From contig CAZGJX010000046.1 of the NCBI GenBank assembly GCA_964525635.1, positions 2,478 through 29,936 of the forward strand: a DNA stretch of 27,459 bases, read 5' to 3'. The first letter of the stretch is position 1. The number at the start of each line of letters is the position of its first letter. The notes below the pieces were generated by a model that was given only the letters and a program-made list of their open reading frames with translations, was not told where the DNA came from and made no database searches. This DNA comes from an uncultured archaeon (GTDB lineage: Archaea > Asgardarchaeota > Lokiarchaeia > Sigyniarchaeales > SOKP01). The position numbers and the translations under genes are program-made. This document shows, piece after piece, positions 5,678-24,350 of this stretch.

Positions 5678-5678
5678 T

Positions 5679-6383
5679 TTATTTACTCTTTGAAAATTTA
5701 ATATTTGTTATGTTAAAATTAATTGTATTTTTATATATATCATAAAAGATATTTTGAATTAGATTATAACAATAATAAAATCCACATATTTGAGGAAAAA
5801 TTAACATTTTTTTTCTTTTTATTTCACTTTGTCCATCTGAAAAATCTAAAAACTTAAAAAAGTTACGATTATTTGGTTGAATACTTGAGATAATTCTAAT
5901 TAAATTATAATTAACTTGAAGAGAAACATGAACAAAATCAGAATAGATCTCAATATTTATGAGACTATTTTCTCTTATATTTATATTGTATTTATATAGA
6001 ATTTTATCAATTTTTTTATTTAAATGATCTTGAATTTCTTCGGGATGAAATTCATTTTCATGAATGTTCAAACTAAAAATTCCAATTATATTCCATTCAA
6101 AATCTCCTTTCAGATGATCTAACCCTCTTATTAATTGGTTTTCGATTATTAATTCTGGTTCAATAGATAGTTTTTTAGCCCATATAAAATCATTTTTAAT
6201 TTCTATCAAACCCTTTTCTTTCATTTCTTTAAGTTTTTTAGAAATATCATCTTTAGATAATAATCCACTTTCATCAAAAGATTCCTCTGAAAATTTTTGA
6301 ATATAAAAATCATAAAAATCAATGAATTCTCCAACTTCTAGAGAACTTAAATATTTTTTTAAAATTTCTTCTAAAATTATCAT
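5679..6383 (-). CDS. Hypothetical Ago-operon protein with probable N-terminal winged-helix domain
   Basis: 234-aa ORF coupled to both neighbours (ATGA overlap, 1-nt gap). SKDDISKKLKEMKEKGLIEIKNDFIW resembles a wHTH recognition helix plus wing. C-terminal part not recognised. Confidence 0.55.
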   Translation of the reverse strand: MIILEEILKKYLSSLEVGEFIDFYDFYIQKFSEESFDESGLLSKDDISKKLKEMKEKGLIEIKNDFIWAKKLSIEPELIIENQLIRGLDHLKGDFEWNIIGIFSLNIHENEFHPEEIQDHLNKKIDKILYKYNINIRENSLINIEIYSDFVHVSLQVNYNLIRIISSIQPNNRNFFKFLDFSDGQSEIKRKKMLIFPQICGFYYCYNLIQNIFYDIYKNTINFNITNIKFSKSK

Positions 6384-7477
6384 ATTTTATCAAATATCAA
6401 TTCTTCAAAATATTGTTTAAATTTCAACTTTTCATTTGAATTGAAAAAGTTCTTCATATCCAAACCATCTAAATTTAAAAATTTTCCTCTAAATATTAAT
6501 ATAAAAGTATTATTTTCTTCTTTTATTAATTCATTTAAATGATTTAAATCTGATTGAAGTTCTCTTGTAATTTTTCTATCAATTAAATAAAAATAATAAC
6601 TTTTATCAAAAATATCTATTTTTAAAGGGATTTTAAATATATTATCTTTTTTTTTATATTCTATATTTATCATAACTTGGTCAATTTTTTCAATAAATTG
6701 CTCGAGACATGTTATGACTATCTCGAAATCATTTGATAACTCCTCTCTTATGTTTTTATTCTCATTGGTTTTGTAAAACATTACAACTTTATTTAAATCA
6801 ATTTTATATAAAGTGCGTGATTTTATTGTTTTTCCTTCAGATTTTTTAGTGATGATTCTGAGAATCTCACCGAGGATTTTCGATGAAATATTTTTATCAA
6901 CATTAAATTTTTTTTCTATTTTCTTTAAGCTTTCTTCTTCAATACCTTCTGTAGTGCTATCAAGATTTCTAGAGGGATAAAAATAGGGTGTTAATTCTAA
7001 GGATTTTAAAAAATCGAAAAATCTAACTCTATTTTTTTTGTTTATAAGATAATTTAATTTTTGAAATTCAGCATCTCTCTCTTTATTTTTATTTTTTTTT
7101 AAAAAAATTACAAAATCTCTAATATCAGAATTAAATGCTTGATTTGTTATAAAAGAAAATTTAAAGTCTAGTTTTTTTACTGGATCTAAATTCAATTTTT
7201 TATATATTTTCTCCCGATCTTTTGAAAAAATCTCAAATAAATGATCTATTGTATCCTTGATCCCGTTTAATTTCCAATGTCCATCATCTTTTTTTTTAAT
7301 TTGTCTAAATATAATATAATTCTCAAATATGCAGTTAATATCCTCAATGACATTGCTAGGACTTTCTATTATTATAAATCTAAAATCTTTTTTATCAAGA
7401 TTTTCCATTAAAGATAAAAACACGCAATAATCTTGATAATTGTATCCTCTCTTACTTTCTGTTCCACTCGATGGAAT
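6380..7477 (-). CDS. Cap4/DUF4297/Mrr-like dsDNA endonuclease domain protein (start extended 18 codons to ATT 7477)
   Basis: The ORF track starts at GTG 7423, but the frame stays open to 7477: IPSSGTESKRGYNYQDYCVF. The SG..S..GY.YQD motif followed by E....ED and RQIKK is the Cap4/LmuA-type nuclease signature. AAGGT SD-like site upstream; in-frame TAG at 7480-7478. Confidence 0.75.
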   Translation of the reverse strand: MPSSGTESKRGYNYQDYCVFLSLMENLDKKDFRFIIIESPSNVIEDINCIFENYIIFRQIKKKDDGHWKLNGIKDTIDHLFEIFSKDREKIYKKLNLDPVKKLDFKFSFITNQAFNSDIRDFVIFLKKNKNKERDAEFQKLNYLINKKNRVRFFDFLKSLELTPYFYPSRNLDSTTEGIEEESLKKIEKKFNVDKNISSKILGEILRIITKKSEGKTIKSRTLYKIDLNKVVMFYKTNENKNIREELSNDFEIVITCLEQFIEKIDQVMINIEYKKKDNIFKIPLKIDIFDKSYYFYLIDRKITRELQSDLNHLNELIKEENNTFILIFRGKFLNLDGLDMKNFFNSNEKLKFKQYFEELIFDKI

Positions 7478-7661
7478 CTAAATGACCTTTTTTAATGAGT
7501 ATTTATTTTTTATCTAATTTGTCTAATATTATATTATTAAATTAGTTTTAAATATTATATCTCTAAATTTTTATTGATTTTATTAAATTAATGGTCTGAT
7601 ATCCTTTAAAAATGAATGATTTGATATTATATTAATTCACCTATTATTATAAAATCTCAGA
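7478..7661. promoter_or_regulatory. Divergent promoter region shared by the Ago operon and tnsAB
   Basis: 184-bp extremely AT-rich gap between head-to-head operons. Individual TATA boxes cannot be singled out. Confidence 0.5.
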
Positions 7662-10600
7662 ATGATTAGTTTAAAATCTCCTTATATAGATAATCTCAAC
7701 TTAGTACAATTAAGAGAAGTGAAACCATCATTAGTTTCTTTCCGTACAATTAGGTATTCTAAAAAGGAATATATGAAAAATATAGCTATTGAATATTATC
7801 CAAATCGTGAATCAAGGGAAACAATTTACTTAAACCGATTAGGAGGAGAATCTTTCCTTGAAGATACTTTAATGGTATTACAAGAGCATGAACCAAATAT
7901 ACTATTATACTTACCTCAATCAATTCCAGTAACTGGTAAAAAATTAGGCAAAAAACTCGAATATATAAGAAAAGATGGAATTATTGAAGAATGGACTCCA
8001 GATAATGCATCTCTTTGGATAGAACAAAAACCAAAGATAATTGAAGTAAAATCAATAGAATGGATTAACTCTCTTTCTTCTAAGGAAAAGAAAAAATTAT
8101 TTTATAAATGGGATCAGGCAAAAGAATTTGCTGATAAACATGGTTTTGAATTTCAAATATTTACAGATGAATTTATCAATCAAAGTTGGAGAGTTGAGAA
8201 TATAAGAGATCTTGAAAGTCAAATGCGATTTTCAGAGAAGGAACATGAAGAAATAATAATAGAATTTATTTATAATAATAGAGATAAAAATTTAACAGTT
8301 AAGAAACTGCAGAGAGAGTTAGAATTAAAAAGTATCTCAAAACAAGAGATCACTAAAGCAATATGCAGCTTAATTTATCGTCAAAAGATATATATTGATT
8401 TAGAAAAAGAATTTAGATTTGATAAGACTATTCTTAAAATTCCTAATGAGAACCTTTATGAAATTCCATTAAATAAATGGCTTGACTTATATAAATTTCA
8501 GTGGAATTCAAAAGATACTGAAATTAAATCTTGTAAGGAGGATTTTGGAATAATTAATCGATCAAATCTTACAGAATATCAAAAAAATATAGAAATTAAA
8601 AACAGAGATATAATTCAAGCAATTGAAAATGGGGATTATTATAAGAATATTATAAGAAAATTTAAGATTAGCTATGGAAAGTTCCATAATTTAAAAATAT
8701 TATATTTAAAATTTCTTAGTAAAGAAATCTCTGAAAAAGAATTTCAACGTGCTTTAATTCCTCAGAAACCAAGTGGTCGAAGAAAAACAAGATTATTTGA
8801 TGTTGATAAATATGGTAAAGCAATTTTTTATGATCTTAGATTTAAAGATGCTATAGAAATCTGTATTGAAAAACAAAATAGATTGAATTATACAGATGCA
8901 TGGAGATTCTATAAAAGATTTAAAAGATTAGATGCATTTCAACAGGGTTTAACGACGAAAACTAGTGAACTTCTTTCAGTATTACTAGAGATTTCAAAAA
9001 TTAATCCTAATTTTAAACATACAACTGCTAATATTTTTAGAAATGAGATTAAAAGATATTGTCAACATTTTTATAAACGTGTAATAACAAAGCGAGAAGG
9101 ATTAAAACAAGCGATGAAAGAGTCTATGATTATTACAGGAGCAACCCCTTATACAAATTATATTGGTCAAATGGTTCAGATTGATCACACATTAACAGAT
9201 ATTATAAATAAAGTGGCTCTTCCAATTACTATTTTTATTGAGAACCAAAAATTAATTCGAAAGAAAAAAAATAAACGATATTATATGGATCGAACATCTA
9301 TTACTGTTTTAGAGGATGTTCATACAGGGGTAATTTTGGGTTATGCTTTTCGATATCGAAAACCAAGTATAGAGTCTGACTTTCAGGCAATAAGAAGAAT
9401 GGTGGTAGGTAATGTAAATCCATTAATAAATGCTATTGATTCAAATAAAGAAATTATTACGGCTGAAAAAAATTATTCAAGTACAATTGGAAAAATACTG
9501 CGAGGAATTCAAGAAATGGTAGTAATGGATATTTTACCAAAAGAAGAATATGAAATGATTCAATTAGAATTTGATCCTAATTATAAAGATAATTTACGAG
9601 CTATTGCTGATTGGTGGGATCATATTCGTGTTATACCTTATTTATTACATATGGATAACGGAAGAGATTTTACTAGTATACAAATGAAAAAATGGATGGC
9701 AAAAAATCATATAAATACAGCATATCGCCCTGTGGGGGGCTCACAATATGGTGGTCATGTTGAAAGATTACTTGGAACTTTAAATCGACAAGCTTTTCAT
9801 GAGATGACAGGTACAACTAAAAGTAACCCAAATAAGCGAGGAGGATATTCAAGTGAAAAATTTGCGATACTAACTTTTGAACAACTTGAGGCATTATTAT
9901 TATTAGCAATTATTCGTTATCATGCATCTCCTCATAATAAGGATAATTTATCACCTCGAGAAAAATGGCGACAAGCCTATGAAGATAATGGACATAATTT
10001 TCATTTTTTACCATCTGGAAAAATTAAAGAACTAACATCGAGAATGAAAAATCAGATACATCAACTGGCTTGGGATTTAATGCCAGAAAAAAAAATAATA
10101 TATAACCTGAAAGATGGACTTACAATTAATAAAATAAAATATAATGATATAAAATTAGCAAATTATTTAAGAGATAAACAAAAGGTAAGAATTCGATATT
10201 CTAACTCAGATATAAGATTTGTTTGGTGGTGGAATTCTCATGAAGATAGACCCATTCCAATCTGGGCTAAGAAAATAAAATTAGGAGATCGAGTATATAA
10301 TAAAAATCAATTACAACGTATACCAATCATTTCTAATCTTCAATTCCAAGATATGCAGAATTTGCCCTTATGGAAAATGGGAATGGAATTATCAGATGAA
10401 TATGAACGTATAGTTAATAGTGCAGAAAATGTACATTATAGTATTTATAAGAATATTCCCAAATCATTAAAAGAAATCAAGAAAATAGATGCGAATATTG
10501 CAAAGAAAATTGATGAAGGAAGAATAGAAGCTAAAGAAATGAAAGAATTAAACCAATATCTTGATTTTGAAAATGCAAATCAATCTAATAATAGAATCAC

Positions 10601-10787
10601 AATTAACCATAATTTAAAAAAGTTAAATAAAAAGGATCAGAAGAAGGAGTTAAAGAAATTATGGCAACAAAAACCAGTAATAGTTAAAAATATAATAATT
10701 CCACCAAAAAAAACAAATCCATTTACAAATAAGAAAATTAATTTAAAAGATATTAATAAGCAAAAGAATAGTGATTTAAATGGCTAA
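7662..10787 (+). CDS. tnsAB: Tn7-like TnsA-TnsB fusion transposase
   Basis: N-terminal TnsA endonuclease (ESFLE, WTPD D114, IIEVK, KW..AK.FA...GFEFQIFTD) and wHTH. TnsB DDE core QIDHT (D508), MDNGRDF (D665), GGHVERLLGTLN (E701), then GTTKSN, YH..PH...SP.EKW and a Mu-type C-terminal barrel (VRIRYSNSDI). Confidence 0.92.
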   Translation: MISLKSPYIDNLNLVQLREVKPSLVSFRTIRYSKKEYMKNIAIEYYPNRESRETIYLNRLGGESFLEDTLMVLQEHEPNILLYLPQSIPVTGKKLGKKLEYIRKDGIIEEWTPDNASLWIEQKPKIIEVKSIEWINSLSSKEKKKLFYKWDQAKEFADKHGFEFQIFTDEFINQSWRVENIRDLESQMRFSEKEHEEIIIEFIYNNRDKNLTVKKLQRELELKSISKQEITKAICSLIYRQKIYIDLEKEFRFDKTILKIPNENLYEIPLNKWLDLYKFQWNSKDTEIKSCKEDFGIINRSNLTEYQKNIEIKNRDIIQAIENGDYYKNIIRKFKISYGKFHNLKILYLKFLSKEISEKEFQRALIPQKPSGRRKTRLFDVDKYGKAIFYDLRFKDAIEICIEKQNRLNYTDAWRFYKRFKRLDAFQQGLTTKTSELLSVLLEISKINPNFKHTTANIFRNEIKRYCQHFYKRVITKREGLKQAMKESMIITGATPYTNYIGQMVQIDHTLTDIINKVALPITIFIENQKLIRKKKNKRYYMDRTSITVLEDVHTGVILGYAFRYRKPSIESDFQAIRRMVVGNVNPLINAIDSNKEIITAEKNYSSTIGKILRGIQEMVVMDILPKEEYEMIQLEFDPNYKDNLRAIADWWDHIRVIPYLLHMDNGRDFTSIQMKKWMAKNHINTAYRPVGGSQYGGHVERLLGTLNRQAFHEMTGTTKSNPNKRGGYSSEKFAILTFEQLEALLLLAIIRYHASPHNKDNLSPREKWRQAYEDNGHNFHFLPSGKIKELTSRMKNQIHQLAWDLMPEKKIIYNLKDGLTINKIKYNDIKLANYLRDKQKVRIRYSNSDIRFVWWWNSHEDRPIPIWAKKIKLGDRVYNKNQLQRIPIISNLQFQDMQNLPLWKMGMELSDEYERIVNSAENVHYSIYKNIPKSLKEIKKIDANIAKKIDEGRIEAKEMKELNQYLDFENANQSNNRITINHNLKKLNKKDQKKELKKLWQQKPVIVKNIIIPPKKTNPFTNKKINLKDINKQKNSDLNG

Positions 10788-12075
10788 AAGCGAAAAATTT
10801 GATGAGGGATTTAATGAATATGACATAAATGAGAATCATTTCTCCTTGATCCATATTAAAGAGAAATATTATGAGCTTATAACTAAAATTAATCAAAGAA
10901 CTGCATTTTATATGTATGATCCATCAGAAATTATAATTCGAAAAGGTTTATTTCCTCGATTTAGAAATGCATTTCTTGATTTAAATGAACGTGGTCGAAT
11001 TTTATTTATCTATGGTGATTATACTACAGGAAAATCTTTTTTAATACGTTATTTTGCATGGCTTTGTAAAGTCAAATTTAGTTCTTATTGGAAGACAACC
11101 AAAGATGGAAGAAAAACGCATCCTATAATAATAAAGAATTTAATAGATAGTATCCGAAGTGTTGAGGGATTCTATACTTGGTTACTTGAAAGTCTTGGAA
11201 ATCCTGTTGATCCAAGACAATTGAAAGAATGGGAAAAGACTAAAGTAAAATTGGTAAAACTTCGTAAAAGAGTTATTAAAACTTTGGATGCCTATGAAAC
11301 AAGACTTCTTATTCTTGATGAGAGTCAAAGATTACTTAAAGCAGGTGATAAACATCAAATTGCTGGAATATTTGAAGCCTTAAAAGACTTAACTACTAAA
11401 AATCATTGGGATGAATTAGGTTGTACTCATCGACCTTATTTTGTTTTATGTGGTACCACAGACTGTCTTTATTTACTGAGAGCAGGTAAATTTATCCAAG
11501 GCAGAGTTCACACATGTCCTTTAGAATCAATCTCAGTAGATAAATATCATGAATTTTTAGCTACAATTTATACTGATTTTATTAATTTAGGTGTTTCTAA
11601 CAAATGGGATTTATTTTATAAACAAGGAGATGAACTTATTATTAATGAAGAAATAGGAATGACGCTTTTTGAAAGAACTCAAGGAAAAGCAGGATTAACT
11701 GTTGAGATTGTTCGTCATGCTGTTTTGGATGCTTTAGAACATGGTAATGAATATCCTAAATTGAATAATTATAAAGAAGTAATCTTGGAAGGAACAAAAT
11801 ATATTATCAAAAAAGAAAGTATTGATGAAAAGAATGCAATAAATATAGAAGAAGATGATGAAGAACAAATTAATCCTCAATCTGAAGAAAAAATAAATAC
11901 TCGGAAAGCAATCCAAGTTATTATAGATGATAAAACACTCTTATGTGCCTTTAGAGGATGTCCAAAATCTAAAAAACCATATAAACGTGATTGGTATTTA
12001 ATAAACCATTATAAAACGGAACATCCAGAGGTAGAATTATATGACAATGAAGGAAATAGATTGGATAACAATTAA
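10780..12075 (+). CDS. tnsC: TnsC/TniB-like AAA+ ATPase with C-terminal C2H2 zinc finger
   Basis: Walker A GDYTTGKS, Walker B LLILDESQ, sensor VLCGT, Arg finger QGRV; 8-nt overlap with tnsAB. C-terminal CAFRGC...Y.....LINHYKTEH. Confidence 0.9.
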   Translation: MAKSEKFDEGFNEYDINENHFSLIHIKEKYYELITKINQRTAFYMYDPSEIIIRKGLFPRFRNAFLDLNERGRILFIYGDYTTGKSFLIRYFAWLCKVKFSSYWKTTKDGRKTHPIIIKNLIDSIRSVEGFYTWLLESLGNPVDPRQLKEWEKTKVKLVKLRKRVIKTLDAYETRLLILDESQRLLKAGDKHQIAGIFEALKDLTTKNHWDELGCTHRPYFVLCGTTDCLYLLRAGKFIQGRVHTCPLESISVDKYHEFLATIYTDFINLGVSNKWDLFYKQGDELIINEEIGMTLFERTQGKAGLTVEIVRHAVLDALEHGNEYPKLNNYKEVILEGTKYIIKKESIDEKNAINIEEDDEEQINPQSEEKINTRKAIQVIIDDKTLLCAFRGCPKSKKPYKRDWYLINHYKTEHPEVELYDNEGNRLDNN

Positions 12076-13162
12076 AGATAGAATTAAACCATTTGAAATA
12101 ATACCAAGTTATATTGATTTATGGACTGATCTTGGTATCTGGTATTTACATAATGAAGATTTTTTTTCAGATTGGTTAAAACAGAAATTTTCTGAATTGA
12201 AAGAGATCATTAGAAAATTCTATGATAATGATATTTTAAAGGAGGAAAATAAAGAAAAATCTTTAAATTATTCATATATAAGAAAATTAGTCTATGGTAT
12301 TTCAAAATATCAAAATATATATGATGCTTTATTCTTTGCTAATGGTTGGAAAGGATTAATCGGATTAGAGTTAGCAAAAACTAAGTTAAAATTATTTTAT
12401 AATAAGAACAAAAGATTTCCAACTCAAAGAGAGATGGATATCATTTCTAATAAAGTAATTCAAAAGAAAAAATATTGGAAAAAATTCGGAATTAACTCAT
12501 GGAATGATTTATTAAAAGAAACATTTGGTCAAGTAAATAAAACATATAATATACATCGAGGGAAAAAAGGTTTAGAAAAAGCTAAATATTGTTTGTTAAA
12601 TTTTCAAAAAAAACAGAAAAGATTACCTACAGCAAGAGATAAAATGATGATAACCTATTCTAATGTAGTTGCAAGAGGTATTTGGAGCGAATTTGGAATC
12701 AATACATGGAATGATCTCTTAATTTATACTTTTAAAAAAATAAATAAATCAAGCAATTTATATAAAGGTGAATTAGGTCTTAATAGAGCTAAAATTGTAC
12801 TAAAAAATTATTATAAAAAATATAAAAAAAAACCTACATCTGAAATAAAAGAGGTTGCAAGTATTTTAGTTGCAATAAAGAGGAATTATTGGTCTAAATT
12901 TGGAATAAAATCTTGGAATGATCTTTTAGAAAATGTATTTGGAAATGTGAATGTGAGAAAAGGAATATGGACTGGAGAAAAAGGATTAGAAAGAGCAAAA
13001 GAAAAATTAAAAAGCTTTTTTATAGATAATAATGCATTACCAACAAATAAAACAAAAGGTTTTGGAGGAATTGTAAAAGCAATCCAGAGAGGTTATTGGA
13101 AACAACAAAATATACACTCTTGGAATGAATTTATATTTTTCGCATTTAAAAAAAATAAATAA
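12041..13162 (+). CDS. Tandem-repeat protein (N-terminal ~100-aa domain plus 4 ~69-aa repeats), putative DNA-binding
   Basis: Four copies of G..GL..AK..L..F......P.......I....RG.W..FGI.SWNDLL...FG, similar to homing-endonuclease-associated (HNH_repeat-like) helical repeats. GAGGT SD; overlaps tnsC; alternative ATG at 12047. Confidence 0.7.
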   Translation: MTMKEIDWITIKDRIKPFEIIPSYIDLWTDLGIWYLHNEDFFSDWLKQKFSELKEIIRKFYDNDILKEENKEKSLNYSYIRKLVYGISKYQNIYDALFFANGWKGLIGLELAKTKLKLFYNKNKRFPTQREMDIISNKVIQKKKYWKKFGINSWNDLLKETFGQVNKTYNIHRGKKGLEKAKYCLLNFQKKQKRLPTARDKMMITYSNVVARGIWSEFGINTWNDLLIYTFKKINKSSNLYKGELGLNRAKIVLKNYYKKYKKKPTSEIKEVASILVAIKRNYWSKFGIKSWNDLLENVFGNVNVRKGIWTGEKGLERAKEKLKSFFIDNNALPTNKTKGFGGIVKAIQRGYWKQQNIHSWNEFIFFAFKKNK

Positions 13163-13198
13163 TTTAAAGTTAAAAGAAATAGATTAAGGGAATTCAAA

Positions 13199-15976
13199 AT
13201 GAATGTTATATGTAATACAATAAAAAAAGAAAAGATTTCTGACAATATTAAATCATTTAAAATAGATCATCAATTTATTAATATTTGGGAACATCCGCGA
13301 ATATGGACACTAAAATCTATTAAATATTGCTCTAAATGGTTAATAGAAGAACTTAACCGAATTAAATTAATTTTACTAAAATTTATAGATATTGGTTATT
13401 CAAATCATAATAACGATGGTTTTGATTATTTCTTTCTAAGAAATCTTAAATATTGGTTAATTGAAAAAGAAGATTTTTTAGAAGCATTATTTAAAGTAAA
13501 TGGATGGCAAGGTCGTCTTGGGCTTGAGATTGCTGCAAGTAAATTAAGATATTTTTTTGCCAAAAATAAAAGATTTCCAAAAACAAAAGATAAAGGAATG
13601 ATTAGGATAAGGAATTCTGTTTTATCAACTGAAAATTGGAAAGATTTAGGAATTCTATCTTGGGATGATCTATTAATTTTCACTTTTGGAGAAAAAACAA
13701 TTAAAGAATGGCAGGATCTTAAAGAAAAAAAGAAATTTCAAAAAGCAATTAAAGAATTAAATAAATTTTATAAGAAAGAACAAAGGTTGCCAAAGTATAG
13801 TGATAAAGAAATATATTGGATATCAGGAGCAGTATCTAAGGGTATTTGGAAAAAATATGGGATAGATGTGTGGAATGACTTATTAAAACACGTCTTTGGG
13901 AAAGTAAATGTAGAATATCATATTTATGATGGAATTGAAGGACTTAAGAAAGCAAAAGAAGAATTATTGAATTTTAATAAAAAATATAATAAATTACCAA
14001 CATCAAAAGATTTTGAATCTATGGCTAAAGCTATATATAGAGGTATTTGGGAAGAATATAGTATAATAACTTGGAATGATTTATTAAGAAGAATTTTTGG
14101 AGAAGTTAATTTAAATCTTCAAAAGGAGTATATGGGTGATGATATACTTCTTAGGATTAGAGAAGAATTAAAGAATTTTGTGAAACAAAAAGGAAGACTT
14201 CCAAAATCTAATGATAAGGAGATGGGGTCAATAATAAGTGCTATTGGGAGGGGTGTACTAAAAAAATATGGGATAAGGACTTGGAATGATTTGCTGAAAA
14301 GTACTTTTGGAAAAATTAATAGGGATACAACCCAATATCATGGGATTGAAGGTCTTAAAAAAGCAATTATTAAATTAAAGAAATTTAAGGAAAAACATAA
14401 AAGAGAACCTAATACAGGGGAAATGGATACTATATATAGAACTGCCATCCGTGGAGAATGGAAAGAATTTAATATATTAAATTGGGATAATTTACTTGAT
14501 TTTACATATGGAAGATATAATAGAGAAATAAATAGATATAAAGGGAGAATTGGATTAAATAATGCGGTTCAAGAACTGAAAAAGTACAGAGAAAAATATG
14601 GAAAAAAACCGATTTCAAATATGAAAGGAATGAGAGTAATTTATAATACTATAAATAGAGGTGAATGGAAAGAATTTGGAATTAATTCTTGGAATGATTT
14701 ACTTTTATTTGCTTTTGGAGAAATTTATTATGAAAAAAATAAATATAAAGGTATAAGAGGATTAGAACGAGCAAAACAAGTATTAGAAGATTTTAAAAAC
14801 ATAAATGGAAAAATACCTTCACAAAAAAACAAAGGGATGGGAGGAATTGTAACTGCGATAGGAAGAGGTGAATGGAAAGAATTTGGAATTCACTCTTGGA
14901 ATGATTTGCTCAAGTTAAAATTTGGAGAAATCAATTATCAACCAAATAAATATTTAGGTAAAAAGGGACTTAATACAGCTATAAAAAAATTAAGAGATTT
15001 TAAAAAAAAATATGGGAAAAAGCCAACCTCACATTCAAAAGGAATGAATGGAATAATTGGAGCTATCGGAAGAGGAGAGTGGAATGAATTTGGAATTTAT
15101 TCATGGAATGATTTACTAAAAAGAACTTTTAGAGAAATAAATTTTGAACCTGATAAATATAAAGGAAGACAAGGATTTGAGAGGGCAATTCAAGAATTAA
15201 GAGATTTTAAGAATAAATATGGAAAAAAACCAACTTCCAATACTAAAGGATTTAGTGGAATTTATAAAATTATTCAACAGGGAAGATGGAAAAAATATAA
15301 TATAAATTCTTGGAATGATTTGCTTATGCATACTTTTGGAGAAATATATATTGAAACAAATAAATACAAAGGTAAACTAGGACTTAAGAGAGCTATTCAA
15401 GAATTAAAAGAATTTAAAATAAAATATGGTAGAATTCCTATCATAAAAGATAAAGGTATGGGGGGGATTGTTAATGCAATTCTTAGGGAGGAATGGAAAG
15501 GATTTGAAATTAACTCTTGGAATGATTTACTCATAACAACTTTTAAAGAACTTAATAAAGAAAAAAATAAATATTTAGGGAAGGAAGGATTTAAGAGAGC
15601 TATTCAAGAATTGAAGGATTATAAGAAGAAGTATGGAAAAATACCTTCTTCTAAAAGTAAAGGAATATTTGTAATATATAACAATGCTCGATTGGGTAAA
15701 ATGAAAGAATTTGGAGTAAATAATTGGAATGATTTATTAAAAATTGCTTTTGGAACTTTTAATCAAGAAAACAATAAATATATAGGAGAAAAGGGACTTG
15801 AGAGAGCCAAATCTGAATTAAGAGAATTCAAGAGAATTAATGGTAAAATACCAACATCGAAAAGCATGGGGATTAAAACTATTTATAAAACAGCTCGCCT
15901 TGGTAAATGGAAAGAATTTGGTATTAATAATTGGCATGATTTACTTTTTAATACTTTTCATCCTGATGAATTATAG
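13199..15976 (+). CDS. Tandem-repeat protein (paralogous N-terminal domain plus 12 ~69-aa repeats), putative DNA-binding
   Basis: 12 W(N/D/H)(D/N)LL motifs; N-terminal domain alignable with that of 12041-13162. Confidence 0.75.
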   Translation: MNVICNTIKKEKISDNIKSFKIDHQFINIWEHPRIWTLKSIKYCSKWLIEELNRIKLILLKFIDIGYSNHNNDGFDYFFLRNLKYWLIEKEDFLEALFKVNGWQGRLGLEIAASKLRYFFAKNKRFPKTKDKGMIRIRNSVLSTENWKDLGILSWDDLLIFTFGEKTIKEWQDLKEKKKFQKAIKELNKFYKKEQRLPKYSDKEIYWISGAVSKGIWKKYGIDVWNDLLKHVFGKVNVEYHIYDGIEGLKKAKEELLNFNKKYNKLPTSKDFESMAKAIYRGIWEEYSIITWNDLLRRIFGEVNLNLQKEYMGDDILLRIREELKNFVKQKGRLPKSNDKEMGSIISAIGRGVLKKYGIRTWNDLLKSTFGKINRDTTQYHGIEGLKKAIIKLKKFKEKHKREPNTGEMDTIYRTAIRGEWKEFNILNWDNLLDFTYGRYNREINRYKGRIGLNNAVQELKKYREKYGKKPISNMKGMRVIYNTINRGEWKEFGINSWNDLLLFAFGEIYYEKNKYKGIRGLERAKQVLEDFKNINGKIPSQKNKGMGGIVTAIGRGEWKEFGIHSWNDLLKLKFGEINYQPNKYLGKKGLNTAIKKLRDFKKKYGKKPTSHSKGMNGIIGAIGRGEWNEFGIYSWNDLLKRTFREINFEPDKYKGRQGFERAIQELRDFKNKYGKKPTSNTKGFSGIYKIIQQGRWKKYNINSWNDLLMHTFGEIYIETNKYKGKLGLKRAIQELKEFKIKYGRIPIIKDKGMGGIVNAILREEWKGFEINSWNDLLITTFKELNKEKNKYLGKEGFKRAIQELKDYKKKYGKIPSSKSKGIFVIYNNARLGKMKEFGVNNWNDLLKIAFGTFNQENNKYIGEKGLERAKSELREFKRINGKIPTSKSMGIKTIYKTARLGKWKEFGINNWHDLLFNTFHPDEL
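13500..15960 (+). repeat. Coding tandem repeat, 207-bp period
   Basis: Trp codons of the WNDLL motif at 13661, 13871, 14072, 14282, 14483, 14690, 14897, 15104, 15311, 15518, 15725 and 15932. The last seven intervals are exactly 207 bp. Confidence 0.95.
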
Positions 15977-16320
15977 TATAATTCAAATTACATTTTTTCC
16001 TTTTAGCATATAATAACCCTTCTTTATTAATATTAGGATATAAAAAACCTCATAATTGTATTTTTTTTTTATTACCTTTTTACCGATAAATAATCATTTT
16101 TCATCTTTATTTTTTCTAAAAATGGCTATAGAACCTTTAGAAGTATTATTTTAAAAAAAAGTATAGTATGACCCCATTTTACCAATAAATAAAAAAAAAT
16201 AAATATTTAAAAAAGAATTCATAATCCTAAGTGATAAAATCGATAGTTTTCATTATTTCCTCCAATATTGAATAGAAACCAAGAAGAATGTGCTTTAATC
16301 GATATATATCAGTAATAAAT

Positions 16321-17172
16321 CTATTCTGGGAGATGTTTTAATATGTCTGATGTATATGTTTTACATTTTTCAGAGTCCTCTTCGTTAAATCGATTATGTG
16401 CTAGATCGTTTCGAATGCTTGATATTCTTTCAAAAAAAGCCTTTAGGGTATGGGAGGATCCAAAAATTTTTTCAAAAATATTTATCCAATTTTTTTTTTG
16501 CATCATTATAAAAAGATAATCAATGAAGCTAAGGAAATCAATAACATCGTAATATCGTTTAGGTTCCTCTTTTTCTTTTTTGATTTTTCTTTTTTCGGCA
16601 TTCTCTCGGAGGTTTGTTCCTACTCCTAAATTCCACCAATCCTCCCCGTATTGTTTTTTCAATTGGTCTTTAACAAACATCCTCATTTTTATTTCAAAAT
16701 CTTCAATTAATTTCTTGGTAGCTTCTTTTGCATCAATGTTTTTATCTTCAATTTCACCGATTTTTATTGATGAATCCTTAAATTTTAGCCATTCAATAAT
16801 TATTGTGAGTTGTTCGTATTTTTTCTCTCTAAAGATTGTTTTTGGTATATAAGGACTTCCAATTTCCCAATATTTGGAATCTCCAAGCGGATCAAACATA
16901 ATTGTGGTAGAATGTTCAGCAATTTTTACTATATCAGAATATATGTTACTCAACCTTAATTGTGGATTTGCTTTAATATTCTCCTTAGTTATAAAGAATT
17001 TATTTTCTATATCTTCGTCAGGAGAAATTATCTTTATTGAAATTTGTTTAGGTTCGGGTTCTGGAACGCGCCATTTAGGGATGTATAATTTAAACTCAAC
17101 CCCTTCGACATCAGCCACCCATAATATTTTATTAGGTGTTGTTTTTTTAAAGTTCGCAATAATTTCGTACAT
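16321..17172 (-). CDS. Swt1-like HEPN domain protein with uncharacterised N-terminal domain
   Basis: C-terminal FEIKMRMFV...YGEDWW...DFLSFIDY...NW..IF..IF...RNDLAH with an intact Rx4H motif. Confidence 0.8.
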   Translation of the reverse strand: MYEIIANFKKTTPNKILWVADVEGVEFKLYIPKWRVPEPEPKQISIKIISPDEDIENKFFITKENIKANPQLRLSNIYSDIVKIAEHSTTIMFDPLGDSKYWEIGSPYIPKTIFREKKYEQLTIIIEWLKFKDSSIKIGEIEDKNIDAKEATKKLIEDFEIKMRMFVKDQLKKQYGEDWWNLGVGTNLRENAEKRKIKKEKEEPKRYYDVIDFLSFIDYLFIMMQKKNWINIFEKIFGSSHTLKAFFERISSIRNDLAHNRFNEEDSEKCKTYTSDILKHLPE

Positions 17173-17190
17173 TGTAATAAAACTAATTAA

Positions 17191-20100
17191 TTATTTTTTT
17201 AATTTCTCCATTGATTCATATGTGTACAGACGAATAATTCCTATTAGCTTTAGCGCCTTACTTCCTAAAATTTTCGATTCATCTTGTTTTCCCGTCATTA
17301 TCTCGTGTTGATCAAAATAGAGATAAACCTCATCAAGAAAGCGTTCTATTGATTCTTGTCTCCACTCGTTAAACATAGAATCGTCTGGAACATGTTCAGC
17401 AGCCTCTTTTATTTTTTCTAATTCCTCATTTAGATTTTTTAATGGTACTTCAATATCTCTCTTGATATTATCTAGCTTACTTTCAGAAAGAAAACGAAGA
17501 AATCGTTCTACAACTTTAGGTTCCACACCCCAAAGTTTTTTCCCCTTGTTCATAATATCGTAATATTTTTTATTGCCTTTTTCAATTTTCTTAATCATTT
17601 TTGAGGCAGTATCTTTCTGGCGAAGTTTTTCTTCTAATTTCTTTACAATAGATGCCGTTCTTTCGTATATCTCCTCAGGTGTTTCAAAGATATTTCTTAG
17701 GGTTTCTCGAACGCATCTCATTATTTTTTCAACTACATGTTTTGCTGTAATTATACCTGATTCAGATTGTAATCCTGGAAATTCTTTATTAAAATCATCA
17801 GGTTCATAACACCAATAGGTAGAAGGTCTCTTGATCCCTTTCTGAGTAACCTCAATTGCAACCACCAAACCTGAACGATCCGAAGTCAACATCCCTGAGA
17901 ATATTCCATTTGGTAGTCTATCAAACATTTTAATTCCTATTTCCTTAATTGCCGTCAATAAATCTTTCTTTGATTGATTTAAACCAATAAATTCCAATTT
18001 ATTCTCGTATTCTTCAATGATATCCGTATCTTGTTCTTTAATTCTTTTCAGATTCTGGTATTCTAGATCAGACTCTAACACTGGGGCATCTAATTCGATT
18101 GCAGCATCGATCTTCCTCAATCTCAAGTAAATTCTCTTCATAAGATTTAACAAAGCTTCGAGACCCTCCTCTAGAAAGAAATTATGGATAAATATTTTTT
18201 CATGACAAGAGCCTAACCTATCAATTCTCCCAGCTCTCTGAATCATTCGTACAGGATTCCAATGAAGATCATAATTTATCACATGTTTTGCATCTTGAAG
18301 GTTCTGACCTTCAGAGAGCACATCTGTCGAAATAAGAATGTCAATTTGCTCTTCTTTAGGTATATCTTTTGATGAAGATATGGGGGCAAATCGATCAATA
18401 ATTTCTTTTCTCTTCTTTCTAGAATTTACTTTTCCTGAAATTATTTCAATTTTGGGATTATTCAGATCGCTTAAATATTCTTTATCTTTTAGAATAGATT
18501 CGTAAATATAGCTTGCTGTATCCTCAAAAAAAGAGAATATTACGGTTTTTTTTTCTTTATAATCTGCAGCGTCGTTTATTATTAACTTTAACTTGATTTT
18601 TAACTCCAATAATTTAAAATCGTTATTATTGAGAATTTTTTCCATTATTTCGAGAATATCATTTAGAATTTCTACTTCTTCATTGAGGGCTTCGGAAAAT
18701 TGGTTTTTAAATTCCTTTTGAAAATGTACTAGATCTAAATCTTCAATCTTACCTTGAGTTTTTAGGGATTTTAAAGTTTGGTCTACTTGATTATCGTATT
18801 CCACTAATGAAACCTCAAGAAGGTCAAAAGGATCGATGTCTTCGTCTATTTTTTCATCGAAAAAGTCAATAAATTGCTTAATTATTTTAGATTTGATGTG
18901 GAATCCTTTTTGGACTGCGATATCTGAGATTTTATAGAAAAGGATTAAGTTTTTTACGCTTCTTATAAAACAAAATACTGAACTTTCGAGTCGTTTTAAT
19001 AGCGTCGTGGTTAAAAGAGGAACAATTGACTTAGAACTTCTAATTACTTCAGCGTCTTGATATTGTTCCAACTTAAATTTCTCTATACTAAATGGTGTGG
19101 CTTCCCAACCTCGTAAAAGTTCAAATATACATTCATATAGAATATTGGAAGGTGTTTCTGGAATATCAACTCTTTCCTCCTCGCTTTTTAATTCATTGGG
19201 CTTTTCTATAAGACGCGAATTAAATAAATCTCTAACCATTTGACAAGAAAGACCATCACAAATTTGTTTTAAAATTAATTGTTCGTTTATTATTTGGTAA
19301 TAGATTGTATCGAGTTCTCGGTCTGGGAATTCAATTTTTCTACCATCGGGAAGTAATATATCTTGCTTCAATACCTTTTGCCTGTATCGAATAATTGAGC
19401 GGCTTCTTGCAACAATTAAATGGTCAGTTATAAGATTAATATCATCTCCACTGCTTTCTTTATCAATATTTTTAAAAAACTCTTTTAGGTCAGGAATATT
19501 TAGCGAATCGTTGAGAGCTGTATCCTTATTTTTAAAGATTAATTTTAATTGATGATATAAGTCCATATATCCAATATTTATAGGAGTTGCGGTTAATAAT
19601 ATAATTTTTGGATCCTTTCGAGCTAAAATAGATAAAAAATTCTTATAACGTTTGGGTTTAGGATTGCGAAAATTATGGGATTCATCTACCAAAATAAAAT
19701 CGAATGCTCTTCGCTCAATAGCTTGCCGACTCATCATTTCTTGACTGTATATTGTGAAAGAATTAAATCCCGAATCAATTAACAAATCGTGCCACATATC
19801 TTGGAGTTGAGCGGGACATACAATTAATATATCGTTATTCATGGGCGGGGCTCGTAGACTTAATGTTCTTAAAAGAGCAATTCCAATATATGATTTACCT
19901 AATCCAACCGCATCAGCAATCAGTACGCCTCCGAATTCTTCAATAATATCCAGAGCACGCGATACACCTTCACGTTGGAACTCTGCTAATCTGACTATTT
20001 CATCCTCATGTTCAAGTGTTCTTTGGAGCTCATATTTATGATATTCAAATACTATTTTTAAAAATACTATGAAGGGATCATATTCTTTATTTCCGAACTT

Positions 20101-20745
20101 AGAATTCTGCAAAAGATCGACTAATTTGCACCGATAATCGTAGGTTTTTCGTGAATTGAAAAAGTGTTCAAACCAATCCTTCAAGTGTTTCAAGCTATCC
20201 TCGTCGTCTATGGAGATGTTGAGTTCTGTGTTTCCTAATAACCCTCCATTAGTAAAATTTGAGGATCCTACTATGGCTATATTTGGGAATAAATACATTT
20301 TTCCATGTAGACGAGGACTCGGATGAATTCTTAATTGATTTATATATTGCACCTCAGGTTTGGACGATTTTATATTTTCAGGGAATGTGTCCCAGTTGGG
20401 TTTTTTTTTTTCTAAGAAGGCAATTAAGGAGCTAATGTGAGCTCGGTTTTGCTTATATTCAGTTATGGGTATTTCATCTAGCATTTGAAGGAATGCTTCT
20501 TGAATTTCCCTTTCAGTATTTTTCGCACTTCGATACTCCCACCCTAATAAAATTCGGCAGGAATTTAGGGTTAATAGTTGGTTCCCAAGTAGCTCCCAGG
20601 CTTTTAAATTAAAAAAACCAGTTGCGATATCTAAAGTATCTGGTTTTAGATTTTCAATATATTCTTTAAGAGCGTCCTTCAAAGTATATCTCTCTAGGGT
20701 TTGACTTTTCGGTTCATTATCAATTATTTTCCTCAATAATATCAA
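17191..20745 (-). CDS. PLD-nuclease / SNF2-family helicase fusion
   Basis: IATGFF, LHGKMY..GSSNFT.GGL.GNTELN (PLD); ADAVGLGKS, VDESHNFRN, LLTATP, STDVLSEGQNLQ, NYDLHWNPVRMIQRAGRIDR. The start may be the TTG three codons downstream (MRKIIDN). Confidence 0.9.
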   Translation of the reverse strand: MILLRKIIDNEPKSQTLERYTLKDALKEYIENLKPDTLDIATGFFNLKAWELLGNQLLTLNSCRILLGWEYRSAKNTEREIQEAFLQMLDEIPITEYKQNRAHISSLIAFLEKKKPNWDTFPENIKSSKPEVQYINQLRIHPSPRLHGKMYLFPNIAIVGSSNFTNGGLLGNTELNISIDDEDSLKHLKDWFEHFFNSRKTYDYRCKLVDLLQNSKFGNKEYDPFIVFLKIVFEYHKYELQRTLEHEDEIVRLAEFQREGVSRALDIIEEFGGVLIADAVGLGKSYIGIALLRTLSLRAPPMNNDILIVCPAQLQDMWHDLLIDSGFNSFTIYSQEMMSRQAIERRAFDFILVDESHNFRNPKPKRYKNFLSILARKDPKIILLTATPINIGYMDLYHQLKLIFKNKDTALNDSLNIPDLKEFFKNIDKESSGDDINLITDHLIVARSRSIIRYRQKVLKQDILLPDGRKIEFPDRELDTIYYQIINEQLILKQICDGLSCQMVRDLFNSRLIEKPNELKSEEERVDIPETPSNILYECIFELLRGWEATPFSIEKFKLEQYQDAEVIRSSKSIVPLLTTTLLKRLESSVFCFIRSVKNLILFYKISDIAVQKGFHIKSKIIKQFIDFFDEKIDEDIDPFDLLEVSLVEYDNQVDQTLKSLKTQGKIEDLDLVHFQKEFKNQFSEALNEEVEILNDILEIMEKILNNNDFKLLELKIKLKLIINDAADYKEKKTVIFSFFEDTASYIYESILKDKEYLSDLNNPKIEIISGKVNSRKKRKEIIDRFAPISSSKDIPKEEQIDILISTDVLSEGQNLQDAKHVINYDLHWNPVRMIQRAGRIDRLGSCHEKIFIHNFFLEEGLEALLNLMKRIYLRLRKIDAAIELDAPVLESDLEYQNLKRIKEQDTDIIEEYENKLEFIGLNQSKKDLLTAIKEIGIKMFDRLPNGIFSGMLTSDRSGLVVAIEVTQKGIKRPSTYWCYEPDDFNKEFPGLQSESGIITAKHVVEKIMRCVRETLRNIFETPEEIYERTASIVKKLEEKLRQKDTASKMIKKIEKGNKKYYDIMNKGKKLWGVEPKVVERFLRFLSESKLDNIKRDIEVPLKNLNEELEKIKEAAEHVPDDSMFNEWRQESIERFLDEVYLYFDQHEIMTGKQDESKILGSKALKLIGIIRLYTYESMEKLKK

Positions 20746-20759
20746 CTCATTTTAAAATA

Positions 20760-23700
20760 TTATAATTCATTATGTAATAACTCAGATACTAATTCGTCTA
20801 GACCATCTAAATCTTCATCAATATGGTTATAGATTGCATTTTCTAGTTTTTGACCAGACTTAATAATTTCTAATCTATCTTCTATATTGCTAGGTATCAA
20901 TTTTTTTTTTGTTGATTTTTTTAGTTTTTTATTTATATCTTCCATTTCTTTTTTAATCCAATTATCTACGAAATTTTTTACTTTAACCTCGAATAATTTA
21001 CCGTATTTTGAAATATCTTGGTGTAATTTATTTTCTGGATTCCATAGAGGAATTGGAAAATCAAAGGGATGTTTATGAATATTTCTTTCATCCTTTATTT
21101 CAATTATCGAAAATGTTAATAACTTTGAATTTAGAACTGCAAGTAAATAATATAATTCAGTATAATCTTCTGTAGTAACTCCATAATAGTAGCATGAAGT
21201 ATCAATTAAATATTCTCCAATAACCAGAGCAGCCTTTAAATGTATTCTGGAAGATGCATTATAGACAATCTTAAAATTATTATTTTGCATTGGTTTTGTT
21301 AAATCTTGATGAAAATCCAATCTATCCCAGAGTGTAATAATATCTTGGCCGGTAACTTCATCTTTCTTTTTTTTTCGATGTTTATCCCATTCAGATTGAA
21401 GAAATTCCCAGTGATTCTTACATTCTTCTGGCATATTCTCATCAAAAGAATAAGCATCTTCAGTACTCCTTATTGGTAGAAAAGCCTTATAAGTATTAAA
21501 AATATAAAAAGGACAAAGTGAATCTGATTTTATTATATTAAAAATATAAGCTGAATCTATTGATACGCTCTTATAAGGAACATATTTCCATGGATTCTTA
21601 GACCATTTTAATTGATCTTCGTCACAGACATAATGATCATCAATCCTTCTTACAAAAAAAAGATTTCGAGGATTAAAATGAGTACCTAAGTAAAATTTTC
21701 CGTGATATTGCGATTTACTTAATGGAGGTAATCTTTGTTTAATTTCGTATGGTATAAATCTCCCGATTGAATAAAAAGTTCTTCTTTTTTTTCCACTACC
21801 TCTCGTAATTTTATCAACAAAAGCAGGTATCCAATTTTCTGAATATTTTGTTTTATATTCCTCAAAAGACCAGGCTCCATCAAATTTAGGTTGAAAATTT
21901 CTATAAACCATTCTTAGTCGTTTTTCAATTTCTATACTTGATTCTTTTTCACGATTTTTTTTATGTCCTGCTAAGACAACAAACTCTTCTGTGAATGGTC
22001 TTGGCTTTTCGAAATCCCACATTTCTATATCTTTAAGATTTTTAAATTGTCGAAAACAATCATTATGAGAACCTTTATTAACAGCTCTTGGTACTAAAAA
22101 TATTATTTTAGCATTTTTTTTTAAATACATCTCTGTACACTGAAATAGGAATAAAGAGGATATTTCTAAATTTGAAACATTTGCAGTTTTACTTGGACTA
22201 ATCCCAACATTTTTTGCCAAAATTTTCATTTGATTTTGATATTCTGATGAATATATACTATTTAATCCAATCCAAGGAGGATTTCCAATAACTAAATCCA
22301 TTTGATTCCTTACTAATTTAGTTCCTATTGAATTATATAGTAAATAAACCCATATATGATCTCTATCCTCTAAGTATAGTTGATATAATTGCGAAATGAT
22401 ATCGTGCAAGTTATCCTTATAAGTTTTTATCAATTCTGATGATTGAAACTGAATATTGTTTTCTAACCAATCTTCTCTGAACTTTCTATCAAAATTTTGT
22501 ATTATATTATCTAAACTTCTATCTCTGACCATTAATTCGTCAATATATTGTAGAAATCGAATGAAATCGCGCAGATAATTGTATGAATTTTCTTTATTGG
22601 GAATCTGAAAAAATTTTTCATTGATTAAAATATTTTGATCTTTAGCAATTGTAAAACTCTCATATATTCCATATTCCATATTCATCTGAGGTACTCGTTT
22701 TAAAGGAAAAATTGAATCAGTTAAAAAAACATTTACAGGTAGATGTTTATTAGGTAACTCTTCAATATGGAGTAATAGGTTAGCTTTAGACACTAAGACT
22801 GCAATTGGATTAATATCAAAGCCATAAATATTTGTTATTGCATTATATTGCTTTTCTAATGATTCACCTGAGTTTATAATTTCTTGCAGTATTTGTATTA
22901 AAAATGTTCCTGATCCACATGCGGGATCAAGAACTTTCATACCAAAAGAATAAGCATCCTCAACTAATAGTCGAGCCAATTCTGGAGGAGTATAAAACTC
23001 GCCTAGCGCGTGTCGGGTTGCTGGAGAAACCATATCTTGATATATTACTCGAAAGACATCAACCGTCTCGTAGTCTGCATTCTTTAACGCTCTATATAAT
23101 AGTTCTCTAATATTTACTAATTCATTGCCCCAAGAATAGAAATCATTTATGAAAATTTCTATCCCTCGACTTTCAAAATACTCTGAAAGTTCAACAAATG
23201 AATTACTTGAATTTACGACTTTATCAGGTAGATACTTGCAAAATAGAACTATTTTAATTATTGAGGAAAGGTATGTATGTTTTATGAAAAGCTCTTCGTC
23301 AATATCTTTTGTTTGGTACACTTTTCCAAAAAAACGCTTCCATTCCTTTTTAATAAAGTCGATTTTCTTCTTGTTATTATCTATGAAAGCTTTAAATTCA
23401 TATTTAGCTCTAATAAAAAGCGGAGAAAACTCTCCAAATTGTTGCTCAAATGTTTCAGCATTGAATGCAGCCTTTACATCGAAGCATGACACTAAACTCG
23501 TCAAAAATCCCATTAAAGATTCTGAATCTTTTTTCTTATCAGAATATTCTAAAGTATCGTATAAATTTCCTTTCACATCATAAAAACAGAAGGCATTTTT
23601 GTACAAGACAATAATATCTTCCAAATTTTCACTAGTAGATTCGTGAAATTCTCCGATAATCGTCATTAAGTTATTTTTTACCCAATTTTCTTCTGTTGAT

Positions 23701-24350
23701 TTTTTAGAGATTAATACTTTTAATACGGATCTTTTCAATGGAGCTTCCTTTCTTGGAGCTATTAAGTCCAAATCTCCTTTTATGTACAAACCTGAGCGTT
23801 TAAACAATAGAAATGTATTATTTTCGTCTTTATTCAGTATGGTCCTATATAATTTTTTAGCAGTTAAAGTATGCTTTGCTTGTAGGATTGAAGCTGTTAA
23901 TCCCTTTGGATCTACTAAAGGTTTTTTATTTAAAAGATCTCCTATAAAACGATCAATTTTTGCAGATGGATTATCGAGCTTAAAGATCATCTCTTCTATT
24001 ATGTCGTCAGAGATTATAGATATCCATAACTGAGAAAAATCTTTAGTGAAAAAAATTACATAATCTCCATAGCTTTCCATTACTTCAGAAATTATTAATT
24101 TTCGCCAATTTCTTTTATTTGCTCTTTTTGGAGCTATTACTAACCAAACTTGAAATTCCATCTCGTGGTATACTACTTGATATAACTCCTCAATATTTTT
24201 TGAAATTGAAGTCTTCTTAAGACTTGGAATAAGTTTGGGATCCATTTTTTCTGGATCTCCTAAATTATAACCAGCTTTATGAAAAATTTGGTAAAAATTC
24301 TCAACCGTTTTAAAATCTTCTGGTTTCCATAAAATTTCTTTTATGCTCAT
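20760..24350 (-). CDS. Type IIG/Eco57I-like N6-adenine DNA methyltransferase with C-terminal target-recognition domain
   Basis: GEFYTP, LDPACGSGTF, GFDINP, IGNPPW; C-terminal YYLLAVLNS...FPIP typical of the specificity region. Confidence 0.88.
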   Translation of the reverse strand: MSIKEILWKPEDFKTVENFYQIFHKAGYNLGDPEKMDPKLIPSLKKTSISKNIEELYQVVYHEMEFQVWLVIAPKRANKRNWRKLIISEVMESYGDYVIFFTKDFSQLWISIISDDIIEEMIFKLDNPSAKIDRFIGDLLNKKPLVDPKGLTASILQAKHTLTAKKLYRTILNKDENNTFLLFKRSGLYIKGDLDLIAPRKEAPLKRSVLKVLISKKSTEENWVKNNLMTIIGEFHESTSENLEDIIVLYKNAFCFYDVKGNLYDTLEYSDKKKDSESLMGFLTSLVSCFDVKAAFNAETFEQQFGEFSPLFIRAKYEFKAFIDNNKKKIDFIKKEWKRFFGKVYQTKDIDEELFIKHTYLSSIIKIVLFCKYLPDKVVNSSNSFVELSEYFESRGIEIFINDFYSWGNELVNIRELLYRALKNADYETVDVFRVIYQDMVSPATRHALGEFYTPPELARLLVEDAYSFGMKVLDPACGSGTFLIQILQEIINSGESLEKQYNAITNIYGFDINPIAVLVSKANLLLHIEELPNKHLPVNVFLTDSIFPLKRVPQMNMEYGIYESFTIAKDQNILINEKFFQIPNKENSYNYLRDFIRFLQYIDELMVRDRSLDNIIQNFDRKFREDWLENNIQFQSSELIKTYKDNLHDIISQLYQLYLEDRDHIWVYLLYNSIGTKLVRNQMDLVIGNPPWIGLNSIYSSEYQNQMKILAKNVGISPSKTANVSNLEISSLFLFQCTEMYLKKNAKIIFLVPRAVNKGSHNDCFRQFKNLKDIEMWDFEKPRPFTEEFVVLAGHKKNREKESSIEIEKRLRMVYRNFQPKFDGAWSFEEYKTKYSENWIPAFVDKITRGSGKKRRTFYSIGRFIPYEIKQRLPPLSKSQYHGKFYLGTHFNPRNLFFVRRIDDHYVCDEDQLKWSKNPWKYVPYKSVSIDSAYIFNIIKSDSLCPFYIFNTYKAFLPIRSTEDAYSFDENMPEECKNHWEFLQSEWDKHRKKKKDEVTGQDIITLWDRLDFHQDLTKPMQNNNFKIVYNASSRIHLKAALVIGEYLIDTSCYYYGVTTEDYTELYYLLAVLNSKLLTFSIIEIKDERNIHKHPFDFPIPLWNPENKLHQDISKYGKLFEVKVKNFVDNWIKKEMEDINKKLKKSTKKKLIPSNIEDRLEIIKSGQKLENAIYNHIDEDLDGLDELVSELLHNEL

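Follow-up and report, generated by a model that had tools for sequence, protein, structure and literature searches.

In a 27,459-nucleotide (nt) stretch of DNA from an uncultured archaeon of the Lokiarchaeia (GenBank assembly GCA_964525635.1, contig CAZGJX010000046.1, positions 2,478 to 29,936; hereafter the window), a Tn7-like transposon carries, directly behind tnsC, two paralogous genes for proteins built largely of tandem repeats of about 69 amino acids (aa). An earlier sequence-only reading of the window had proposed that these proteins occupy the TniQ/TnsD position and select the insertion site. Our comparison with relatives agrees that they are most likely TnsD-slot target selectors: their genes are linked to tnsC, related arrays are fused to TniQ, one of the proteins is predicted to dock on TnsC, and related elements sit at fixed attachment (att) sites. 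We are fairly confident, on the strength of sequence comparison and structure models, that the element represents a recurrent TniQ-less variant of Tn7-like transposons that uses repeat arrays as target selectors.

TniQ has been treated as the universal link between selectors and TnsC, is ubiquitous in the Tn7 branch according to one survey (PMC10293859), and is the protein by which surveys find Tn7 elements. The TniQ-less repeat elements seem to insert at fixed gene ends, and relatives in which TniQ is fused to the repeats suggest a plausible route to the TniQ-less state. In what follows, G, L and P label Asgard genomes, loci and proteins, and C labels contigs; the window lies on contig C46 of genome G000.

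Two repeat proteins follow tnsC

Open reading frames (ORFs) on the + strand encode, in order, a fused TnsAB transposase of 1041 aa (7662–10787), the AAA+ ATPase TnsC of 431 aa (10780–12075), selector A of 373 aa (12041–13162), whose gene overlaps tnsC by 35 nt, and selector B of 925 aa (13199–15976). TnsAB combines a TnsA-like nuclease motif near 7992–8050 with the DDE residues of a TnsB transposase near 9177, 9648 and 9756; the Pfam domains Tn7_TnsA-like_N and Mu-transpos_C are weak in this copy and above cut-off in its homologues. TnsC was assigned by a TniB match (E 3e-12), alignment and a tree, and the alignment places its Walker A motif at 11014, its Walker B motif at 11305 and a C-terminal C2H2-type zinc finger at 11944–12024. 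No Pfam match to TniQ/TnsD (PF06527) was found in the element, and a profile made from eight TniQ domains, which does detect TniQ in L164 and L134, was negative on contig C46.

The repeats described earlier are present, four in selector A (12353–13162) and twelve in selector B (13514–15976), with a spacing of 67–70 aa, mostly 69 aa, and a DNA period of 207 nt. What that description had missed is a non-repeat N-terminal domain of about 100 aa in each protein (12041–12352 in A, where models suggest a helical, helix-turn-helix (HTH)-like fold; 13199–13513 in B, delimited by alignment). The conserved scaffold and, in the long protein, the twelve helix variants agree with the earlier listing; both proteins are strongly basic (net charge of the repeat region +41 in A and +78 in B), and neither has a nuclease domain in Pfam. 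The A array has a collinear orthologue in the G075 element at msrB, and the B array has collinear orthologues in P0002–P0008. No other copy of either protein was found in the 4.45-Mb genome.

The repeat and its variable helix

AlphaFold2 predicts the repeat as a confident three-helix unit (mean predicted local distance difference test (pLDDT) 88.8), with low confidence between repeats (predicted template-modelling (TM) score 0.42). The suspected relation to HNH_repeat (PF18780) was borne out for selector B, which scores 48.2 bits against a gathering cut-off of 26, a sum over repeats in which no single stretch is significant. The nearest Atlas models of the repeat are HNH_repeat (TM 0.66) and HA (PF03457; TM 0.50), and matches among PDB structures are dominated by the DNA-binding N-terminal domains of TetR proteins, albeit weakly (Z 3.4–4.2, root-mean-square deviation mostly ~3 Å, ~54 residues). 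Range and motif pattern suggest that the variable helix corresponds to the recognition helix of an HTH.

Across 403 repeats, positions 41, 42, 44, 45 and 48 are variable and positions 43, 46 and 47 hydrophobic. Residues at the variable helix positions are 48% G/S/T/A/N and 12% K/E, compared with 26% and 29% in other variable columns, and the helix is enriched in G/S/T/A/N/Y, not in K/E. The helix had been singled out as the one hypervariable element; variable it is, but not uniquely so, since several surface columns of the scaffold vary equally. Between paralogous repeats, helix columns are less alike than other variable columns (identity 0.16 versus 0.22), and between positional orthologues they are more alike (0.62 versus 0.51; p ~0.05, from sequences that are not independent). 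The periodicity and residue make-up of the helix support its likeness to a recognition helix. The 403 repeats contain 330 distinct helix tetrads, which argues against a small alphabet of the repeat-variable diresidue (RVD) kind and places the array closer to a zinc-finger array than to a transcription activator-like effector (TALE).

Linkage to tnsC in the absence of TniQ

Among 400 Asgard genomes, the repeat query had matches in 28 and the window's TnsC matched at 10 places in 8 genomes. The expected linkage was found: in nine of these ten places an N-domain/repeat gene comes directly after tnsC, and the remaining tnsC lies at a contig end. Five further linked loci from metagenomes (L001, L061, L111, L112 and L137) each have one to three such genes. 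The eight-domain TniQ profile had no match in the tnsC-linked repeat loci. The C-terminal zinc finger is invariant in the main TnsC clade and absent from a second branch (L035, L036 and L111).

Records of the relatives bear the names Promethearchaeota and Heimdallarchaeota, and the associated sequencing runs are from salt marsh, with no RNA run among those listed. Logan contigs from the run that covers the sequence best, which may be the source sample itself, are identical to the window over 11275–18359. Joints in this comparison have sides of 20–23 nt, one between the two type 1 ends excepted, and carry no weight in what follows. No relatives were found in viral_contigs. Elsewhere in G000, contig C148 (3–7202) holds a separate, canonical element whose products are TnsAB, TnsC, a TniQ bearing a long C2H2 array, and a further protein in which the TniQ domain occurs twice.

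The repeat also occurs away from tnsC. L113 (386–13708) encodes an N-terminal domain with 9 repeats alongside a HATPase and a type I restriction-modification system in one operon, a possible co-option for defence. In one genus, a three-repeat protein of ~200 aa in a conserved host context (L044:1373–1972, L045:5848–6453 and L047:9564–10154) has possibly been domesticated.

Predicted docking of the N-terminal domain on TnsC

A model of TnsC with ATP and residues 1–235 of selector A gave a docking score of 0.84 (runs 0.85, 0.81 and 0.84), and the best of three controls scored 0.00. Of 80 solved complexes, 58 reached the 0.84 mark, as did 2 of 110 mismatched pairs; these counts are only roughly valid here because the alignments were our own and a ligand was included. 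The runs agreed in at least 88% of contacts, with a partner pLDDT of at least 79. In the model, selector A meets TnsC through residues 5–37 and 84–91 of its N-terminal domain, not through the repeats, and the TnsC face comprises residues 41–46, 90–119, 138–147 and 257–266, including F43, Y44 and G140, which are invariant in the clade. The N-terminal domain is thus predicted to dock directly on TnsC.

This domain does not appear to be a TniQ core (hhalign probability 0.2%). Its best structural matches are the I-beta domain of MuA and the DNA-binding domains of TnsB, at Z of just 4.2–4.9, and neither Foldseek nor a PDB sequence search found a solved relative of the domain or of the repeat. Since the domain has no detectable likeness to TniQ, the docking model is unlikely to be a recall of a solved TniQ–TnsC complex.

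TniQ fusions and exchange of repeats

Relatives of the repeat proteins (288 at 50% clustering) include fusions of TniQ to the N-terminal domain and 11, 5 or 2 repeats (P0058, P0066 and P0132, respectively) and of TniQ to repeats (P0052 and P0084). L164 is a canonical tnsAB–tnsC element with two genes of the TniQ–N-domain–repeat type. These fusions indicate that the array occupies the place of the DNA-binding part of TnsD, and the window proteins resemble such TnsDs minus TniQ. The window selectors may be TnsD derivatives that have lost the TniQ core. Beside the TniQ-repeat gene of P0052, the preceding gene (L134:9052–10017) is of TnsC-like size and has no recognizable Walker A motif.

Other relatives carry a PD-(D/E)xK-like domain behind the repeats (P0050, P0061, P0076, P0082, P0086 and P0130; motif read by eye), which makes the array a candidate general DNA-reading scaffold. 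Stand-alone arrays with such a C-terminal domain, at L037:4636–6969 and L039:2133–3845 and in P0050, P0076, P0082, P0086 and P0130, have a natural architecture resembling that of TALE nucleases. P0069, P0079, P0091 and P0168 are of great length and contain many diverged repeats of the family; one of them also has a methyltransferase domain.

The earlier proposal that the arrays are recombinable is upheld by comparison of related arrays, in which whole repeats have been gained, lost and swapped. The B array occurs on two classes of N-terminal domain that are only 9–20% identical and match the two TnsC branches, and its repeats 1–4 are mostly collinear across these classes, at 46–65% identity per repeat. 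Repeat 3 is missing from the A protein of L001, P0003 has 13 repeats, P0056 joins the first repeat of A to the last of B, and P0039 combines the N-terminal domain of A (48%) with a different array.

Transposon ends and insertion sites

Two families of transposon ends recur in the host genus, type 1 with L001-type TnsAB and type 2 with window-type TnsAB. The window holds a type 2 end on the − strand (25282–25354), with three close TnsB-site repeats and a terminal TGT at 25354. This is likely to be the far end of the element, because the closest tnsAB relatives are flanked by the same type: a truncated tnsAB on contig C67 of G158 lies between two type 2 ends, and L137 also has one. The tnsAB-proximal end (7520–7626, + strand) is eroded; it matches at 85% the intact end before the truncated tnsAB of G158 and keeps an inner TnsB-site-like motif (7605–7626), and a site scan found no terminal TGT. 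Relatives retain this end of the TGT...ACA pair, with its repeated TnsB sites, intact. With its left end in this state, the window copy has probably lost its mobility, although it could still act in trans.

In four of four genomes of the host genus, G000 (contig C6) included, an end lies behind the 3′ end of msrB. In a pattern search, 18 of the 400 genomes, representing 7 genera, proved to have a type 1 end 35–47 nt after the YCxNS codons of msrB; the reversed control gave 0. A whole repeat element is contiguous with msrB in G075, its tns genes pointing toward msrB, and G262 has a remnant of a B-type array at the same gene. Target duplications at msrB are mostly unreadable because insertions are stacked.

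Other elements occupy other sites. L001, which encodes A- and B-type proteins, is complete, with a 5-bp duplication, and lies at the 3′ end of a DHH gene, within its final codons; L051 is a complete relative with its own 5-bp duplication; L111 begins at the stop codon of aRF1; and L112 lies in a LAGLIDADG-like frame, its contig carrying many small ORFs. The 5-bp duplication is not readable in the window. No transposon end was found at the 3′ ends of G000's own DHH and aRF1 genes, and neither ends nor att sites were resolved for L164, L035, L036, L002 and L053. The msrB, DHH, aRF1 and L112 sites associate different arrays with different sites, and one family with two. The four-repeat selector A is the best candidate for the reader of msrB, given that G075 has an A orthologue and no B, and selector B may serve a second targeting pathway.

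A model for target selection and its alternatives

We propose that a TnsAB–TnsC transposon of the Tn7 type uses, as target selectors, TnsD derivatives minus the TniQ core. The repeat array would recognize a conserved sequence close to the 3′ end of a host gene, and every three-helix unit would lay its variable helix (positions 41, 42, 44, 45 and 48) against a few base pairs. The N-terminal domain, which is longer in TniQ-less members, would bind TnsC directly and nucleate it on DNA. TnsC would recruit TnsAB, which would insert the element at a fixed spacing and create a 5-bp duplication. With two selectors there would be two pathways, the four-repeat protein most likely leading to msrB and the twelve-repeat protein to a second site. 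Repeated insertion would build up the stack of mini-elements at msrB, and new specificities would come about as whole repeats are gained, lost, swapped or mutated.

Several observations weigh against this proposal. The HTH match of the repeat is weak (Z 3.4–4.3) and the helix identity statistic marginal (p ~0.05, related sequences). The left end of the window's element is eroded, and a contig break separates the element from msrB, which lies on C6, itself ending in a type 2 end. The DHH site is supported by one element alone, as a pattern search found ends at the DHH motif in 0 of 161 genomes. Four N-domain/repeat genes (L113, L040, L135 and L136) have no adjacent tnsC, and G000 contains the separate TniQ element on C148. 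The latter could be the source of a TniQ that the repeat proteins, binding the target as TnsF-like accessories, need in trans. TniQ does occur elsewhere in G000, G139 and G140, and there is precedent for TniQ and the DNA-binding part being separate proteins (Tn6022; Clade I, 10.1101/2025.07.27.667033). However, two queries found no TniQ in G075, a 99% complete genome with the element at msrB, the C148 TnsC belongs to another branch, and the N-terminal domain itself docks on TnsC in the model; we regard a requirement for TniQ in trans as improbable.

TnsC might instead target by itself through its C2H2 finger, with the repeat proteins as regulators or end-binding proteins. The invariance of the finger in the main clade fits this idea, as does the precedent of Tn5541, which has no TniQ and a C-terminal extension of TnsC (PMC9881144). 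Yet the fingerless branch (L035, L036 and L111) retains the repeat gene and a gene-end site, closely related TnsCs are found at different sites, and arrays are fused to TniQ elsewhere. A single zinc finger also reads too few bases, and we give targeting by TnsC itself a low probability. It is very improbable that the arrays are cargo or non-specific DNA-binding proteins whose helix variation reflects drift: although the proteins are very basic, other columns vary as much as the helix and some copies stand alone, repeat order is conserved between distant elements, the helix favours G/S/T/A/N/Y over K/E, the genes keep a strict position after tnsC, and att spacing is fixed. Guidance by Argonaute, from the divergent operon at 676–7423, is scarcely credible. 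That operon abuts tnsAB, and its product from 3440–5677 matches PIWI and prokaryotic Argonaute (pAgo) profiles (E 1e-34), accompanied by a second, weak PIWI protein and a Cas4-like nuclease; but none of its five genes has a homologue in the 22 other loci searched, it lies outside the eroded end, and insertions are at fixed gene ends. An RNA- or Argonaute-guided transposon is largely refuted by the restriction of the operon, among the loci searched, to this one and its lack of conservation with tnsC.

Beyond target selection by repeat arrays, a bolder possibility, which we hold tentatively and with some doubt, is that the 69-aa repeat is an independent, recombinable module reading a few bases, with a learnable code that could aim a TniQ-free transposon of three proteins (TnsAB, TnsC and one selector) and nucleases. 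If true, zinc fingers and TALEs would be joined by a third type of modular array for binding DNA. The known pairs of selector and att site (msrB, the DHH gene and aRF1) make specificity and modularity directly testable, and a mate-out assay in Escherichia coli already works for an Asgard Tn7.

Relation to known systems

Like TnsD and the dual TniQ–TnsD selectors (E. coli Tn7; PMC10293859), the window selectors come after tnsC as a tandem pair, and the dual-selector elements share with the repeat elements a set spacing from the 3′ end of a conserved gene, TGT ends with TnsB sites and a 5-bp duplication. Unlike TnsD of Tn7, the window selectors have no TniQ core, their predicted contact with TnsC is a helical domain of ~100 aa, and their putative DNA-binding part is an array of 2–13 near-identical modules. 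We did not find msrB as a Tn7 att site in the literature searched. The archaeal (Asgard) TniQ–C2H2 Tn7 elements (Thesier et al., bioRxiv 10.1101/2025.07.27.667033) have the same hosts and a fused TnsAB and have likewise co-opted a tandem modular DNA-binding domain for targeting, but the window's module is not a zinc finger. That survey searched by TniQ, so TniQ-less repeat elements were invisible to it. It describes C2H2 arrays, not the 69-aa repeat, and the TniQ–repeat fusion on contig MDVR01000143 (P0052 here) is found there only among unclassified TniQs that lack a TnsC, a group the survey took no further.

Tn5541-type elements (PMC9881144) also have TnsAB and TnsC, no TniQ and an extended TnsC C terminus; a replacement selector and an att gene are not described there, whereas the window family has putative dedicated selectors and chromosomal att sites. 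HNH_repeat and HA, to which the window repeat is matched by Pfam and Atlas, are helical repeats too, and HA domains occur in bacterial nrdD-targeting TniQs (Fig. S3 of 10.1101/2025.07.27.667033); the window unit is longer (69 aa), has an extra short helix and is attached to a predicted TnsC-docking domain. With TAL effectors the arrays share tandem repeats, a conserved scaffold, a variable patch and recombination. The label 'TALE-like' fails in the strict sense: a TAL repeat is a two-helix hairpin of 33–35 aa with a two-residue RVD loop drawn from few RVDs, whereas the window unit has 69 aa, three helices, 4–5 variable positions on a helix and hundreds of variants, with no small RVD alphabet. 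No account of a TniQ-less repeat-selector system was found in the literature searched, which did not extend to subscription papers.

Other features of the window

The window has a GC content of ~26%, and no tRNA was found in it. Between selector B and the far end, the − strand carries cargo genes (16321–25035) for a HEPN protein, a PLD–SNF2 helicase, a type IIG-like restriction-methylase and a Rho_N protein. Beside tnsAB, the five-gene operon on the − strand (676–7423) encodes the long pAgo/PIWI protein (3440–5677), in which an obvious catalytic tetrad was not seen by eye, the second weak PIWI protein (1542–3440), the Cas4-like nuclease (676–1545) and two unknown proteins.

Beyond the far end, a type 1 end of the sister family with L001-type TnsAB (25374–25490, + strand) is inserted head-to-head, and a second type 2/type 1 head-to-head junction (26962–27150, no strand assigned) lies in the mini-element stack. 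A third repeated end-like motif occurs beside type 1 and type 2 ends in the window (25178–25248), on contigs C132 and C232 of G000 and in L087, L090 and L154, and may point to a further, third family of elements that stacks at this island. Long stacks of mini-transposon ends surround ordinary genes such as dnaK–grpE, carAB and those for transporters (G158 C67; G160 C119 and C215; G000 C124, C132, C84, C191 and C203) and may represent an integron-like island grown at msrB. Beside the end of the L001 element, L115 (10001–13655) carries an OLD-TOPRIM and UvrD pair, a Gabija-like cargo.

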